From a virus (Duplodnaviria > Heunggongvirae > Uroviricota > Caudoviricetes), in the IMG/VR virus record IMGVR_UViG_2684622670_000021, positions 1-37,564 of that record: a DNA stretch of 37,564 nt, one strand, 5' to 3'. How positions within the stretch are numbered: position 1 is the stretch's first letter; each line of letters begins with the position of its first letter. Below the pieces are notes generated by a model. The model saw only the letters and a program-made list of their open reading frames with translations, was not told where the DNA came from and ran no database searches. Below, in pieces: positions 2,713-35,947 of this stretch. A program made the translations under genes and the position numbers.

Positions 2713-3537
2713 TCAGGCGGTGAAAGTACCAATAAATGTTTCTACTTTGCTGTCCTTGAATTTCTCAACAAGCAGATCACGAAATTCGTTAGCCATTTCT
2801 TCCTGCACCGCCTCCAGCTGAATAATGCGTAGAACCAGTACAGGACGATCGCCAGTGATAATACTGAGGCGTAATTTAAACGGACGTTCTTTCAGACCTT
2901 CAAACGGAACGCATTTAAATTCAAATGCCACTGGCATAATGTCTTTGGTCTTCGCTTCGACAGACTCCATCAGGGAGCGTTTGCCGCTGAAGTCATTATC
3001 TTCAAAATCAGCGGTCTGGTTTGCTTCAATCGTGATTTTACGGACAGCCGCAGCCGCTTTTGTTGCCTGAATAGCGTCACCATTAGCATCAAAGCCCACA
3101 AGATAGTCGGCCCAGTCTTCAATCCATTCTGCCAGTGACTTCTGGGAGTTACGCTCGCCGTTAACAGACAACAGAGCAGAGAACGGTGCTGTCTTTTTCA
3201 GTTTGAGTGTGGCGGTGTTATCTGCGTGACCTGGTTCATCAATAGTACCCAGGTTAAGCACACTGACGGCACGCATATTATCAGCATCGATAAAGCAGCG
3301 GGTGCCTTCATCTGCAAGATCTTTAGAATAACGGGTAAAGTCATCGATGCTGGCAGTGGAAAGCGCACCACGGAAACGGAAGCGATTTAAATTAAATTTT
3401 TCCAGATCATGAATGCGGAAATTCTCAGGCAATGCCACAGCATCGGCACCAATCTTACTGATAATTTCATTAACACCCTGAGCAGAAATAAGGGCATGGA
3501 TTTGATTAATTGCGGTTGCGTCTAAGTTCTGAGACAT
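2713..3537 (-). CDS. DUF2303/YfdQ-like prophage protein
   Basis: 274-aa ORF in the leftward early operon; size and sequence character recall the YfdQ family of CPS-53-type prophages. Function unknown. Confidence 0.55.
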
Positions 3538-3602
3538 AATAAGTCCTCACTATATAAAGATATTCAGTGATGAGATAAATAATCAGTTAATTAAAAACGA
3601 TA

Positions 3603-3965
3603 TTAACGACCTGCTGCGCGGAGTTTTCCGTCAGGTTCACCGGCAAGAGTCAGTAACTGTCCCTGGTCTTCCTGCAGAATAGTCAGGCGACCACCGCGAT
3701 TGACATACATCGGCGTTTCGGTGGTGTCTTCTTCGGAAATTTTCCCGCGGTTAGTCGGGCGAACATATGAGAGTTTGTGTTTGATTTTCACTCGGTTCTC
3801 ATCAAACGGTTCGATTTCCAGGTTGAGCGAGACCTTACCTTTGGTTTTCGTGTTCATCACACCTGAAGCGACTTCACTGAGAACTGCGCCGATTTTGGTT
3901 TCAAATACGCCGCCGTCCAGCTCCCCGATAAATGCCTGCACATCAGTACTGCGTTCGCTAGCCAT
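3603..3965 (-). CDS. Hypothetical early-left protein (120 aa)
   Basis: Start chosen at the ATG preceded by AGGAG (MASERSTDVQAF...). The longer 226-aa ORF extends into GC-rich sequence that does not look protein-coding. Confidence 0.5.
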   Translation of the reverse strand: MASERSTDVQAFIGELDGGVFETKIGAVLSEVASGVMNTKTKGKVSLNLEIEPFDENRVKIKHKLSYVRPTNRGKISEEDTTETPMYVNRGGRLTILQEDQGQLLTLAGEPDGKLRAAGR

Positions 3966-4433
3966 TTTGCTGCTCCTCATCATATCGACCCTGCAAGGTC
4001 GGTTAGTTTCTCCACAAAACAGAGAAGAACACCTGCGGTGACTGCCGCCCGGATGGATTGGGTTATGAGCCCGTCGTCCGGTGATGCTCTTCTCTGTTTT
4101 GTAAAAAGGACGGTACCAGCCGGAAGCAAGGGTACAAGCTGGTACCGCCAAGACTACACACAGCATAAAGTTGTGGTGCCGGGTGCCTCCCGGTGCCTGG
4201 CGAAGGTTGCACACCAGGCGGGTGGGTATCCACAGAAGGTCGACTGTCAGCCTCAACCTTAACCCGCGTGCGCTGAGCCGCATTCACCACAACGCTAAGG
4301 ATTCTCTCTGGTTGAAAATACTTAGCTGTTATGTGCCTGCTTTTAGCCACATCAGGCGAGGTGGACCTAGTTATTCCCCAACAACAAGGATTCGGTTAAT
4401 CTGGTTATCCCCAACAACGCAAAAGGAAAAGAA

Positions 4434-4868
4434 ATGTCCGGTAATATCTATACGCTGTACAAATCCCACTGTGAAAATGTTGGAAAGTATCGGGGCATTG
4501 AAATCAGTGGGGTAGTGTCATCAGTCGAAATAAGCAAAGTTGAATCAAGGGCAACATTACTTACTCTTTTGGACCTTGTCTTACATGAGTACCGGAAGAA
4601 ATTCGGCACTCCCTATAATCAGTTGAATGGGAAAAAGGCTCTGGTTCACCTTATTCTGATGAAGCATCACTGGATGCCAAAACAGATTAATGAGATGAAA
4701 TTTGATGAACTTCTTCTTTCAATTCAGGATGAACTCACACTTGATAAAATAAGCGTAACCGCCCAGAAATTTTTAGATTATCGAGACTGGAGATCACAAA
4801 TTCATCACTTTGATGATTTTGACGAAAATGAATGGGATCCTAATTTGTCTGCACAATATCTAAAGTAA
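4434..4868 (+). CDS. Hypothetical protein (144 aa), rightward moron within the leftward early operon
   Basis: Strong SD (AAAAGGAAAAGAA then ATG); AT-rich relative to neighbours; opposite orientation to surrounding pL-operon genes; two 15-bp direct repeats immediately upstream. Confidence 0.5.
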   Translation: MSGNIYTLYKSHCENVGKYRGIEISGVVSSVEISKVESRATLLTLLDLVLHEYRKKFGTPYNQLNGKKALVHLILMKHHWMPKQINEMKFDELLLSIQDELTLDKISVTAQKFLDYRDWRSQIHHFDDFDENEWDPNLSAQYLK

Positions 4869-5046
4869 CATCCTGTGATAAAACCGTGATTTCCTGATCC
4901 AGTTTTTTTAAGGAGTCTATTGTTTCCTGTCGATAAGACAGCACTTCACGAAGCTGGTTTATAGCTGCCAGCTTCTTTGTCATCCACTCATAAATTTCCT
5001 CATCTGTGTAGCCAGGCGCGACGATTTTGGGTTCTGTTTTGTGCAT
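4840..5046 (-). CDS. Hypothetical small protein (68 aa), first ORF downstream of pL
   Basis: ATG preceded by AGGAG; 3' end overlaps the convergent 144-aa gene by 29 bp. Not arginine-rich, so not obviously an N-type antiterminator. Confidence 0.4.
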   Translation of the reverse strand: MHKTEPKIVAPGYTDEEIYEWMTKKLAAINQLREVLSYRQETIDSLKKLDQEITVLSQDVTLDIVQTN

Positions 5047-5105
5047 TTCACATCTCCTCAAGTTATCAGTTACTTGTTGATGGGGACCAGATTGTTAAAG
5101 AGCTA

Positions 5106-5131
5106 AGCGTCCTGTAGGGCGCTTTTTTGTT
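5106..5131 (+). terminator. Intrinsic terminator (7-bp GC stem, tetraloop, T5 tract)
   Basis: AGCGTCC-TGTA-GGGCGCT followed by TTTTTTG on the + strand; no T tract on the complementary strand. Confidence 0.5.
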
Positions 5132-5294
5132 GCTAACGAATCATCCTGGACTTCATATGCCCCAGGCGGCTACTTCGTGGGCGTCCTGCCTGTTCGTTTT
5201 TGACATTTACTGACTGCTTACGACACATGCACCGTGTTGCAACCAGATTTTGTTGTAATCCTGTAGTTGGTCTGGAACAAAAGATAAAATTAAA

Positions 5295-5331
5295 TTGCGA
5301 TATATGCAAGTGATGTTTGCGAAATATGCAA
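5295..5331. promoter_or_regulatory. OL operator region: two 15-bp sites TTGCGATATATGCAA and TTGCGAAATATGCAA
   Basis: Two near-identical imperfect palindromes (TTGCG-N5-TGCAA) 22 bp centre to centre, left of cI where pL/OL is expected; the same motif recurs in the cI-cro intergenic region. Confidence 0.5.
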
Positions 5332-5340
5332 ATTTATAGG

Positions 5341-5365
5341 TAATAAAAAGCCACCTTTCGGTGGC
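5341..5365 (-). terminator. Intrinsic terminator downstream of cI
   Basis: Hairpin GCCACC-TTTC-GGTGGC followed on the minus strand by CTTTTTATTA, about 20 bp after the cI stop. Confidence 0.5.
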
Positions 5366-5385
5366 CGATGGATGGGATATTGAGG

Positions 5386-6078
5386 TTAATTATGTCTCTT
5401 AAGGGTTTGCGACTGACTGATTAAGACCTTTCCAAAGACCATGAATCGGTGTTCGTTTTCGCTAGTAATTCCCCATTCACGGTAAATCTGGTTATCAGAA
5501 ATCACCAGCAGTTTGTCAGGAATCATTTGAAGTCTTTTAACGTATATTTTGTCATCAAAACCAAAGACATATATACCATCACCATCAAACTGATTGATGC
5601 TGACATCAACGAAGATGAGATCTCCTGGCTCAATGGTTGGACACATACTGTCCCCACGAACGTTGATAACTTTGATGTGATTGGCTGGTCGTCCGCCGAA
5701 CATTGATACAGCATTATCAGTTCTGTATTCGATGGCATGAATCACATCAATGACATCACCGCCCTGGATAAGGCCATTTCCCGCACTGGCACTGATATCC
5801 AGCATTTCAATACGGAACACATCCTTCACCTGCGCAACATCCTCATTATTACTGTTTTTATATACAGTATTACTTTTGTGGGCAGAGGTAAAGAGATCAG
5901 CAATATCAACACCTAAGCTCTTGGCAATATTACTCAGTGTTTGTTCGGTAAATTGTTTTTGCTTACCCGTTTCTAAGCGCGAGATGTTCGCCGCATCTAC
6001 TCCTATTGCTTCAGCGAGATCGGCGATTTTCATGTTCTTCGCTTGGCGAAGTTGTCTGACTCGGTTTCCTATGTTCAT
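5386..6078 (-). CDS. cI: Prophage repressor cI (HTH plus S24 LexA-like peptidase domain)
   Basis: N-terminal XRE-type HTH (QLRQAKNMKIADLAEAIGVDAANISRLETGK); C-terminal S24 motifs (Ala-Gly site in SASAGNG, catalytic Ser in GDSMCPTIEPGDLIFVD, downstream Lys); divergent from cro. Confidence 0.9.
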   Translation of the reverse strand: MNIGNRVRQLRQAKNMKIADLAEAIGVDAANISRLETGKQKQFTEQTLSNIAKSLGVDIADLFTSAHKSNTVYKNSNNEDVAQVKDVFRIEMLDISASAGNGLIQGGDVIDVIHAIEYRTDNAVSMFGGRPANHIKVINVRGDSMCPTIEPGDLIFVDVSINQFDGDGIYVFGFDDKIYVKRLQMIPDKLLVISDNQIYREWGITSENEHRFMVFGKVLISQSQTLKRHN

Positions 6079-6098
6079 GCGTTTATTACATTTCTTTA

Positions 6099-6165
6099 TT
6101 GCGTGATAAGCAAATCAACTTGCGCAAAATAATTGCGTGAAATAACATGCATAACGCGCAATATT
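6099..6165. promoter_or_regulatory. OR operator / pR-pRM region
   Basis: Contains TTGCGTGATAAGCAA (6099-6113, same motif as OL), the palindrome TTGCGCAA (6120-6127) and further TTGCG/CGCAA half-sites between the divergent cI and cro starts. Confidence 0.5.
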
Positions 6166-6175
6166 TGGAGGGCAT

Positions 6176-6436
6176 ATGCAATCACTATTACGAAATGTGC
6201 GTAAGGCGCATGGTTTCACTTTGCAGCATGTTGCTGCGGGTGTTCAAGTCAATCCAGCGACGTTGAGTCGTATTGAGAGGCTGGAGCAGATTCCATCTAT
6301 CGAGCTTGCAGAACGTTTAGCCAATTTTTTTAAGGGTGAAGTCAGCGAAATGCAGATTCTTTATCCGGCACGTTTTCAATCTAGCCAAAACCAGAATGGG
6401 TTTAAACCACAGGAACAGGAGGTGAACCGTGGGTAA
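6176..6436 (+). CDS. cro: Cro-like HTH regulator
   Basis: 86-aa ORF divergent from cI with SD GGAGG; HTH (FTLQHVAAGVQVNPATLSRIERLEQ). Confidence 0.8.
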   Translation: MQSLLRNVRKAHGFTLQHVAAGVQVNPATLSRIERLEQIPSIELAERLANFFKGEVSEMQILYPARFQSSQNQNGFKPQEQEVNRG

Positions 6437-34653: not shown

Positions 34654-34832
34654 TGAGCGATATTTATGCAGTCGTACAAAATGGTGTCGTTACAAATCTT
34701 GTTGTATGGGATGGTAAGTCAGAGTTTAAGCCAGAAAAAGCGGATATAGTTAAATGTGTTGGAGATGTTGGTATTGGCTGGTCATATGACGGTAAAAAAT
34801 TCATCAAGCCTGAAGATAAAACCGCGCAATAG
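34653..34832 (+). CDS. Small protein downstream of the tail fibre (59 aa)
   Basis: TAATG-coupled to the tail fibre stop with GGAG SD; short, so coding status is tentative. Confidence 0.4.
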   Translation: MSDIYAVVQNGVVTNLVVWDGKSEFKPEKADIVKCVGDVGIGWSYDGKKFIKPEDKTAQ

Positions 34833-34850
34833 CGCGGTTTTATTTATTTT
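34818..34850. terminator. Bidirectional intrinsic terminator between the tail module and the acyltransferase gene
   Basis: AAAACCGCGC-AATA-GCGCGGTTTT with A4 upstream and a T-rich tract downstream; both convergent genes stop within or beside it. Confidence 0.55.
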
Positions 34851-35947
34851 ACTGCTAAAATTCGTTTTCTTAGCATCAGCTCTAAAGGCTCCTCAACTAA
34901 TTTATAAAGTATGATTGAGACTATGGTTATTATAACAAGGAGCGCTATTAAATAGAGTGGTCCGGGGTTATGTCCAAAGATTTTAAAGCAAAATAATATA
35001 ATGGGTTGATGAATTAAATAAAAAATAAATGATGATTTCCCTAATAGCTCTAGGGTTTTTGAACTGAGGATAGTATGAATGACTCCATTTCTTAGATAGA
35101 TGCATGAAGTAAAGAATATTACCATGGGGAGTAAATAATATAACGAATAACGTAGACTATTATTTATGTTGTTGCTATAATATATAGCTATTAGCAGAGG
35201 TAATAGTGAAATTAAAAACAAAAGGCTGTCGGCTGTCGGCTGTCGGCTGTCGGCTGTCGGCTGTCGGCTGTCGGCTGTCGGCTGTCGGCTGTCGGCTGTC
35301 GGCTGTCGGCTGTCGGCTGTCGGCTGTCGGCTGTTTTTCCAGCAAGCGTAAATAATCATGCCGCAAATAAATTCTACCAAGCGGCTTACTGGGAATATAT
35401 AATATAACCAGTGATTAAGTTCTTCTGTTTGTATAATTTTTAAAAAATATATAGTTAATAGTAGAGTTATAATTGATATTGCAGTGATTACTTTCTTTGT
35501 AATTGATGTATAAATCAACGGAATAAACATTAAATAAAAAAACAGCTCATCAGACAAAGACCATGATACACCATTTAATGAGAAGTAGTAATCCTCCTTT
35601 GGTATCCAACTTTGCATTAATAAAATATTTGTTAAGGTTTTTGAAAAATCAAAGTTCTTTAAGTGAATGGTTAGTAAAATAAATGGCATGGCTAATAATA
35701 GATGCATTGGAACAATTCTTGCCAATCTTAAAAGAATAAACTGTCTTTTACTTGTTACTTCATTTTTTAGCTTGTCTTCATATGAATATGAAAGAATGAA
35801 GCCAGATAAAATAAAGAAAAAGGAAACGCCAATAAATCCCTGGGAAAACATTTCTTTTACAAAAACACCAAAATAGTCTGTATTTAAATGGCATAAATAA
35901 ACCATTAATGCAGCTATAAATCTGAGTCCTGTTAAGTGGCGAAGCAT
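34844..35947 (-). CDS. Acyltransferase family 3 integral membrane protein (Oac-like) with in-frame heptapeptide repeat
   Basis: Multi-TM protein with the N-terminal acyltransferase-3 motif (RHLTGLRFIAALMVYLCH); ATG at 35947 preceded by AGAGG (track start at 35977 is TTG); very AT-rich; prophage-terminal position like oac/gtr loci. Confidence 0.75.
   Translation of the reverse strand: MLRHLTGLRFIAALMVYLCHLNTDYFGVFVKEMFSQGFIGVSFFFILSGFILSYSYEDKLKNEVTSKRQFILLRLARIVPMHLLLAMPFILLTIHLKNFDFSKTLTNILLMQSWIPKEDYYFSLNGVSWSLSDELFFYLMFIPLIYTSITKKVITAISIITLLLTIYFLKIIQTEELNHWLYYIFPVSRLVEFICGMIIYACWKNSRQPTADSRQPTADSRQPTADSRQPTADSRQPTADSLLFLISLLPLLIAIYYSNNINNSLRYSLYYLLPMVIFFTSCIYLRNGVIHTILSSKTLELLGKSSFIFYLIHQPIILFCFKIFGHNPGPLYLIALLVIITIVSIILYKLVEEPLELMLRKRILAVK
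35224..35334. repeat. Tandem heptanucleotide repeat (GGCTGTC)x15 plus partial copy, inside the acyltransferase ORF
   Basis: Counted directly: 15 perfect GGCTGTC units (35224-35328) plus GGCTGT. On the coding strand it is (GACAGCC)15 encoding five SRQPTAD heptapeptides. Confidence 0.95.

Follow-up and report, generated by a model that had tools for sequence, protein, structure and literature searches.

A probable block of minus-strand RNA genes, including a divergent STnc100 relative, in the early-left operon of an SfV-like lambdoid phage

Positions 3990-4430 of the virus record IMGVR_UViG_2684622670_000021, analysed over its full 37,564 nucleotides (nt; hereafter the window), probably form a block of RNA genes on the minus strand of the early-left (PL) operon. 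The block contains a small RNA (sRNA) of ~220 nt that is a divergent, sub-threshold member of the known STnc100 family. It is followed by a tRNA-like three-way junction, termed element F, that is apparently undescribed. A match to the block was found in 2782 of 5426 complete Escherichia coli genomes (about half), and what is annotated there as a hypothetical protein (ymfH in K-12) would be a mis-annotated set of conserved structured RNAs. A first-pass annotation, prepared from the nucleotide letters, had described the interval as a GC-rich island with inverted and direct repeats, and had offered a structured non-coding RNA, a miniature inverted-repeat element or a regulatory region of the adjacent rightward gene as explanations. 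Structured RNA was the correct choice, on the strand opposite to the one assumed; the number of distinct RNA modules is at least two, not one. All of the listed repeats except the direct repeats are helices of minus-strand RNAs.

By sequence comparison, the window is an SfV/SfIV/Kati-like lambdoid temperate phage of E. coli/Shigella. SfIV and Kati match the interval at 97.7-99.8% identity, and SfV matches 84% of the interval's length at 96.6%. Genes on the minus strand are ordered cI-like repressor, 73-amino acid (aa) gene, interval, yfdP, DUF2303 gene and HD-domain gene. Two copies of TTGCATAT(T/A)TCGCAA were located at 5295-5335 on the minus strand, just left of (after) the cI terminator, and are likely OL operators overlapping PL (-35 TTGCAT, -10 TATCTT). 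The gene order and the position of PL therefore place the interval inside the early-left operon and make the minus strand the relevant one. The GC enrichment noted earlier was confirmed, with 54-60% across 3950-4300 and roughly 33-45% in most right flanks (4350-4950). On the other side, GC content falls to 29% at 3500-3600 and rises to as much as 55% inside yfdP (3600-3750).

The minus strand from 4340 to 3960 folded with a predicted energy of -166 kcal/mol (z = -7.5 relative to shuffles). Rfam searches of the whole window at gathering thresholds gave zero matches. In E-value mode, the covariance-model scan that the first-pass annotation had proposed as a check matched STnc100 (RF02076) on the minus strand only, at 4323-4100, over model positions 1-206 (full length), with 43.4 bits; the E-value was 5e-8 for the region and 2.5e-6 for the window. 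Because this score lies below the gathering threshold, annotation pipelines miss the relative in the window. The alignment begins within hairpin B, the 5' hairpin of the sRNA, and continues through a core of five helices. P1 is formed by GUUGUGGUG and CACCACAAC, the junction contains AAU, P2 comprises 5 base pairs (bp) and a bulge, P3 and P4 follow, and P5 (CCGGG-AGGCA-CCCGG) is stacked directly on P1. The motifs that mark an STnc100 core, namely the closing stem, GGUGAAU, the P2 hairpin and CCGGGAGGCACCCGG beside the 3' strand of P1, were all found, and they covary across 57 homologues including canonical CCCCC-type members. In the 57 anchored sequences, drawn from many Enterobacterales, 93.9% of the cells of P1, P2 and P5 pair and 10 pairs show two-sided changes (125 cells), parts of P1 and P5 being set by the search pattern, which leaves six outer P1 pairs, the whole of P2 and one P5 pair as informative. 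The covariation score was 0.322 vs 0.116 in shuffles, and slid controls paired in 37-48% of cells. RNAalifold recovered P1-P5 independently from 8 near relatives. The G-U pairs of the core and of element F fit the minus strand only. Since the Rfam match, the covariation and the RNAalifold result agree, the core is a genuine divergent relative of STnc100.

In the literature, STnc100 and its relative PasD are prophage sRNAs typically located in late regions near Q or stx. PasD is Hfq-dependent and was detected by Northern blot, and 11 transcribed STnc100 copies, one of them Northern-confirmed, are described in enterohaemorrhagic E. coli. The RNA of the window shares with these the multi-helix core with GGUGAAU, P2 hairpin and CCGGGAGGCACCCGG stacked on the closing stem, the 3' intrinsic terminator, the prophage location and the full-length alignment to the model. 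It differs from them in the flipped pairs of P2 (GCGGC, not CCCCC) and in its DicF-like 3' end, and it occupies the early-left operon, not a late-region site downstream of Q or stx.

Sub-threshold STnc100 matches of 33-42 bits were obtained at the equivalent operon position in SfV, PhiR29_2, ST64B, phiES15, 118970_sal3 and mEp460_4F5, and further sub-threshold matches in the ban operon of P1/RCS47 and in K-12 prophage Qin, between dicF and dicB. The STnc100/PasD family consequently reaches early-left operons, the P1 ban operon and the Qin dicF-dicB spacer, in every case below the Rfam threshold. A scan for the P5 motif, using one genome per species, yielded 88 distinct cores in Escherichia, Salmonella, Citrobacter, Klebsiella, Enterobacter, Kosakonia, Pantoea, Erwinia, Rahnella and others. 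Tandem cores, two or three in number and ~250 nt apart, were seen at locus L079 (6367-7004) and at loci L075 and L107 (Superficieibacter). The ban-operon core lies between upl and tciA in P1 (L002, 2500-2627) and RCS47 (L008), accompanied by three tRNA genes and an annotated 'dicF-like region'. The Qin core (L012, 2453-2585; NC_000913.3 ~1649452-1649584) scored 34.4 bits and carries a compensatory CCUGG/CCAGG change. A put-like antiterminator of the HK022 type was considered and is not supported: put is a two-stem structure of ~70 nt just downstream of PL or PR, and the window has a five-helix core of ~125 nt. In a test by motif only, the immunity region of HK022 (L014) lacked the core motif, and HK022 was not among the blastn matches listed.

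Published RNA data are available for two homologues. K-12 prophage e14 carries a 90%-identical copy of the block, annotated as the protein gene ymfH (b1142; L013, 3070-3381), which overlaps the core, the terminator and element F. The surrounding layout is alike, with the repressor gene ymfK, ymfJ, an oppositely oriented ymfI, the RNA block, xisE and intE. Term-seq of wild-type MG1655 placed three minus-strand 3' ends in the e14 block (PMC7815308). When these were mapped onto the structures, the end at 1201195 coincided with the last U of the predicted e14 terminator U-tract. The end at 1201257 fell 4 nt after P1, at the start of the AU-rich linker, after ...CACCACAACUUUA (window 4166). The end at 1201423, the strongest of the three, fell 2 nt after hairpin A (window 4333). 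In Qin, the 3' end at 1649584 lies 1 nt after P1 of the core and 25 nt upstream of dicB (PMC7815308). In an sRNA prediction based on RIL-seq, 'ymfH' was represented by 81 and 117 chimeric fragments on Hfq, joined to 3-4 partners; the SIC scores were 0.667 and 0.75, and its sRNA score was 0.113 vs the authors' cut-off of 0.1, dicF scoring 0.103 (PMC8175672). These SIC scores imply that the RNA was always the second in the chimera, a position typical of sRNAs. For the e14 copy, published data therefore show both 3' ends at the terminator and in the linker and association with Hfq. The first-pass annotation had made its RNA reading depend on a transcript and a conserved structure, and both were found, the transcript data coming from the e14 homologue rather than from the window phage. 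Overexpression of ymfH is reported to trigger the retron-Sen2 toxin RcaT (preprint, bioRxiv 2020.06.22.160242), an effect that the RNA, and not a protein, could be causing.

On its 3' side the core gives way to a single-stranded linker, which leads into an intrinsic terminator. Within the linker, the motif UGCUGUGUGUAGUC is kept in the window, SfV, e14, ST64B, phiES15 and phiNP despite three different terminator hairpins, which is behaviour typical of sRNA seeds. The second, 9-bp inverted repeat of the first-pass annotation is part of the terminator hairpin; it is present as a 10-bp repeat (4111-4120 / 4138-4147), the left arm having been placed one base off. Its length is unremarkable, as repeats of at least 9 bp arose in 26 of 200 shuffles and of at least 10 bp in 5 of 200; it gains meaning because UUUUU follows on the minus strand and because the hairpin is conserved.

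The terminator hairpin starts with UUGGCGGUACCAG, near the UUUGGCGGUAUCAG of DicF. Viral contigs L144 and L158 have this hairpin after a domain of ~140 nt with ~90% identity to the Qin sequence upstream of dicF. Three different bodies, the Qin dicF-upstream domain, the STnc100-type core and the body of mEp460/Stx2c phages, share the closing stem GUUGUGG.../...CCACAAC. From the shared stem and the shared hairpin it follows that the locus has the architecture of a DicF precursor with exchangeable bodies, and prophage sRNAs appear to be assembled from exchangeable bodies, seeds and terminators. The position is also that of DicF: a PL-type operon, after a structured domain, before early-left genes and with the shared GGCGGUAYCAG hairpin. 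The likeness to the Qin dicB operon extends over the repressor-controlled leftward operon, the 5' domain closed by GUUGUGG/CCACAAC, the AU-rich linker, the GGCGGUAYCAG hairpin and the U-tract. DicF is reportedly processed by RNase E, and the 3' end mapped in the e14 linker recalls this processing. The two loci differ in seed and loop, the ftsZ-complementary loop not being kept, and in order: the Qin core comes after DicF, whereas the core of the window comes before the DicF-like hairpin. In phage Stx2c_EH0430 (L006, ~2316-2345), the mEp460-type RNA body is immediately preceded by a near-consensus sigma-70 promoter (TTGACA-18-TACATT), so that the sRNA there may be either a primary transcript or a PL leader.

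Read-through beyond the terminator would enter element F. The perfect 15-bp inverted repeat of the first-pass annotation (4014-4028 / 4088-4102) was confirmed and extends to 25-nt arms with 84% complementarity. It is far beyond chance, because perfect inverted repeats of more than 10 bp occurred in 0 of 200 shuffles of 3990-4430 (maximum 10). The stem is further extended by five U-A/U-G pairs between the terminator U-tract and an invariant GGAGAAA; these pairs are possible in a minus-strand RNA only. A pattern scan of viral contigs together with phage loci gave 44 distinct variants. Across these, the structure is paired in 95.9% of cells and two-sided changes affect 11 pairs (78 cells), compared with 45-57% pairing and 2-3 such pairs in slid controls. 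The variants are 102, 103, 104, 105, 106, 128 and 129 nt long, and these lengths rule out coding.

The tip of arm 1 of element F is GGG/CCC with the loop CUCAUAA, and so reproduces the three G-C pairs and the loop of the anticodon arm of tRNA-fMet. A 14-mer at this tip, CGGGCUCAUAACCC, is identical (14/14) to nt 29-42 of metZ. By our own estimate ~0.02 such matches are expected by chance, and window-wide the significance is modest, at least 1 of 100 shuffles having reached 14; structure and context are the main grounds for the link to tRNA. The same arm recurs in Klebsiella-type phages, within a unit of ~70 nt directly after Q, tRNA-Asn and tRNA-Arg, closed by a 6-bp acceptor-like stem (GGCCUG/CAGGCC) and then RCCA. 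The window has no such acceptor stem with discriminator and CCA; in its place is a stem of 20-25 bp followed by GGAGAAAC. Element F also lacks a D arm and a T loop. A true tRNA or pseudo-tRNA was rejected, as ARAGORN found no tRNA in the window or related loci and the Rfam tRNA model gave zero matches at E<=10. Both forms of element F were matched by no Rfam family and not by ARAGORN.

The long-stem form always stands after a terminator and before the leading early-left gene, either yfdP-like or RdgC-like (RdgC-like being a label given by eye on N-terminal sequence). An interaction between the anticodon-like loop and the downstream start codon was rejected: matches were of 3-6 nt only, are explained by AUG plus a Ser codon, and are absent before RdgC-like genes. 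RNase III sites are found in the lambda N leader, in metY-nusA-infB and at the 3' end of DicF. Like RNase III leader sites, element F would present a long, near-perfect duplex between the upstream RNA and the leader of the next gene, a comparison drawn for the window from shape. Searches on yfdP, on ST64B sRNAs and on prophage tRNA-like initiator mimics, in the papers that could be searched, turned up no account of these elements. Element F is a candidate new RNA with an initiator-tRNA anticodon mimic. It is a tentative and rather doubtful proposal that it represents an undescribed family of phage tRNA-like RNAs built around such a mimic, with a free-standing form in tRNA arrays downstream of Q and an embedded form in early-left leaders. 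Such an RNA might act as a decoy for nucleases of the VapC type that cut the anticodon loop of initiator tRNA, or might bind the ribosomal P site, IF3 or MetRS. Punctuation of the operon through an RNase P/RNase III processing signal is a further possibility.

The following scheme is proposed for the block, in which the promoter, the nucleases involved, the seed with its targets and the role of element F are postulated. Transcripts from the PL side would be cut or ended after leader hairpin A. The sRNA of ~220 nt would follow, with its STnc100/PasD-type core, the linker UGCUGUGUGUAGUC and the DicF-like intrinsic terminator, in the layout of the Qin DicF precursor. A cut in the linker would probably release a 3' fragment of ~60 nt. 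For the sRNA, the most likely mode of action is in trans on Hfq, with the linker as the base-pairing segment. Read-through transcripts would fold into element F, whose long stem would absorb the terminator U-tract. Element F would then probably be a signal for processing or insulation, keeping the sRNA apart from the yfdP mRNA and defining the yfdP leader.

Several points weigh against this scheme. The RNA-level evidence all comes from e14, whose copy is 90% identical and has a damaged P5, and none from the window phage. The RIL-seq score is barely above its cut-off, the chimeras are few, and the 3' ends in Term-seq may also be decay intermediates. The STnc100 match of 43.4 bits falls short of the gathering score of 47. 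The DicF model (RF00039) reached 19.4 bits (E = 0.15) at 4108-4162 compared with a gathering score of 48; relatives gave no DicF match at E<=1, whereas the score of true DicF is 76.7 bits. Pairing with ftsZ uses the loop CAGUUUUACUCCG of DicF and CGGAGAGAAACU at the ribosome-binding site, and identity with true DicF and targeting of ftsZ were rejected for the window, the loop having no ftsZ complementarity and a duplex energy no better than shuffles (duplex folding of long sequences was uninformative for this pairing). The promoter scan found no sigma-70 promoter for the sRNA, and zero targets were identified. Cores directly upstream of dicB, kil and tciA have no terminator, an arrangement that suits action in cis as well as in trans. 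The role suggested for element F would follow from its shape only.

A cis-acting leader, in which the core, resembling a riboswitch or binding a protein or the polymerase, is a sensor or attenuator of read-through or translation of the downstream early-left genes and the terminator its expression platform, would account for the placement of cores directly upstream of dicB (Qin), kil (phiES15), tciA (P1) and the yfdP block. It would also fit the invariant AAU junction, UNNGC loop and AGGCA loop, as in ligand- or protein-binding RNAs, and the terminator immediately 3' of the core in the window. This explanation is nevertheless unlikely: no conserved alternative (antiterminator) pairing was seen, cores and terminator hairpins have been exchanged independently, and some cores lack a terminator or stand in tandem arrays. 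Family members are moreover stand-alone, Hfq-dependent sRNAs, and the e14 RNA occupies the sRNA-typical position in Hfq chimeras.

That the interval is mainly a promoter/operator of the rightward 144-aa moron, with the direct repeats as binding sites of a regulator, is improbable. The repeats end 15 nt before the moron ATG and are kept upstream of at least two different rightward genes, but the explanation can apply to 4366-4433 only, the other ~370 nt being explained by minus-strand RNAs. Within 4366-4433, where the regulatory region proposed by the first-pass annotation could still hold, no sigma-70-like promoter was found; at least four divergent sequences follow ...CCCCAACAAC, as at a recombination junction, and an inverted copy flanks the cassette. 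A miniature inverted-repeat element or other remnant of mobile DNA bounded by the 15-bp repeat, also suggested earlier, is very improbable. The length of the repeat and the mosaic nature of the region speak for it, but the arms covary as an RNA stem (the closing stem of the junction), the outer pairs are G-U and possible on the minus strand only, and target-site duplications are absent. The context is also fixed, either between the terminator and the first early-left gene or, with an acceptor-like stem, beside tRNA genes. Least credible of all is a protein-coding origin, as a ymfH-like ORF (open reading frame) or an N-terminal extension of YfdP. Upstream of yfdP, 106 codons remain open in its phase, and databases list hypothetical proteins here, ymfH in K-12. 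Against this, homologues differ in length by 1, 2, 4, 19 and 27 nt, the ST64B core lies in a different register, the phiNP frame is closed after 5 codons, and substitutions are paired compensatory changes in helices. The statement that the interval has no convincing ORF is borne out by these length differences and register shifts, by which its ORFs are not conserved reading frames among homologues. The minus-strand RNA block thus remains the preferred reading, and its features are collected in Table 1 together with the neighbouring genes.

Table 1. Positions in the window of the RNA elements, repeats and neighbouring genes
Feature	Position	Strand	Basis or remark
STnc100/PasD-type five-helix core P1-P5	4170..4293	-	RF02076, covariation, RNAalifold
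Hairpin B, 5' hairpin of sRNA	4295..4327	-	STnc100 model positions ~1-30; in minimum-free-energy fold
Single-stranded linker UUUAUGCUGUGUGUAGUCUU	4150..4169	-	Candidate seed and endonuclease site
Intrinsic terminator of sRNA	4103..4149	-	12-bp GC-rich hairpin 4108-4149 + U5 4103-4107
Element F, tRNA-like three-way junction, yfdP leader	4006..4107	-	Covariation in 44 variants
Element F closing stem	4014-4038 / 4078-4102	-	Contains 15-bp repeat
Element F arm 1	4049-4081	-	Initiator-tRNA-like tip 4060-4073
Element F arm 2	4035-4048	-
Element A, leader hairpin GCCUG...CAGGC	4333..4364	-	Upstream edge of RNA block
Hairpin G, GC hairpin with UGCAG loop	3984..4003	-	Just upstream of yfdP Shine-Dalgarno
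Two direct repeats	4370-4385 and 4404-4418		Putative mosaic junction beside moron
Inverted partner of repeat copy 2	5074..5093		Pairs with 4398-4417; 20 nt, 75% complementary
yfdP-like 120-aa gene	3603..3965	-	phrog_204; first protein gene after RNA block
144-aa moron	4434..4868	+	phrog_5286; orientation opposite to early-left operon
73-aa gene	4840-5061	-	Between repressor and interval
cI-like repressor	5386-6078	-	First in minus-strand gene order

The direct repeats were present as described, with GTTATTCCCCAACAAC as the first copy and GTTATCCCCAACAAC as the second, whose end lies 15 nt short of the ATG at 4434. Common to both is the 11-mer TCCCCAACAAC (4375-4385, 4408-4418), and a 1-nt indel distinguishes them; by length alone an 11-nt direct repeat is marginal, the maximum in shuffles being 11. 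A third copy of TCCCCAACAAC, inverted and with one mismatch, was located at 5076-5086. The resulting inverted repeat (4398-4417 / 5074-5093) brackets the convergent pair of 73-aa and 144-aa genes and could mark the edges of a cassette or, alternatively, pair over a long range in the PL transcript. Both direct-repeat copies are kept in many phage contigs. Homology ends at 4364 in SfV and at 4418 in PhiR29, and these ends, with the divergence after CCCCAACAAC, therefore mark the repeats as a mosaic junction and a hot spot of moron insertion. Judged by sequence comparison, the repeats would be junction sequences of the moron cassette rather than part of the RNAs. The RefSeq name of the 144-aa protein is 'ECs1072 family phage-associated protein'. 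Pfam gave zero matches for the 144-aa, 73-aa and YfdP proteins, the translated interval not being part of that scan.

A sigma-70 promoter scan of 4300-4433 found none for either the sRNA or the moron. The sole sigma-70-like site in 3400-6400, TTGGCA-16-CAGAAT at 4653-4680 on the minus strand, is antisense within the 144-aa gene and is directed toward the RNA block. Element A is conserved in the window, loci L004 and L010, and phiES15, with a variant form in SfV, e14 and sal3. A nut/boxB-like reading of element A, or a promoter within it, was rejected, there being no convincing match by eye and an empty promoter scan. Hairpins with a (U)GCAG loop, as in hairpin G, recur between element F and the Shine-Dalgarno sequences of different genes (L001, L009, L136, L141-L254). 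Elsewhere in the window, 34759-34905 gave sub-threshold Rfam matches to Leu_leader (35.9 bits, both strands) and RsmY, and is probably a bidirectional terminator-like hairpin.

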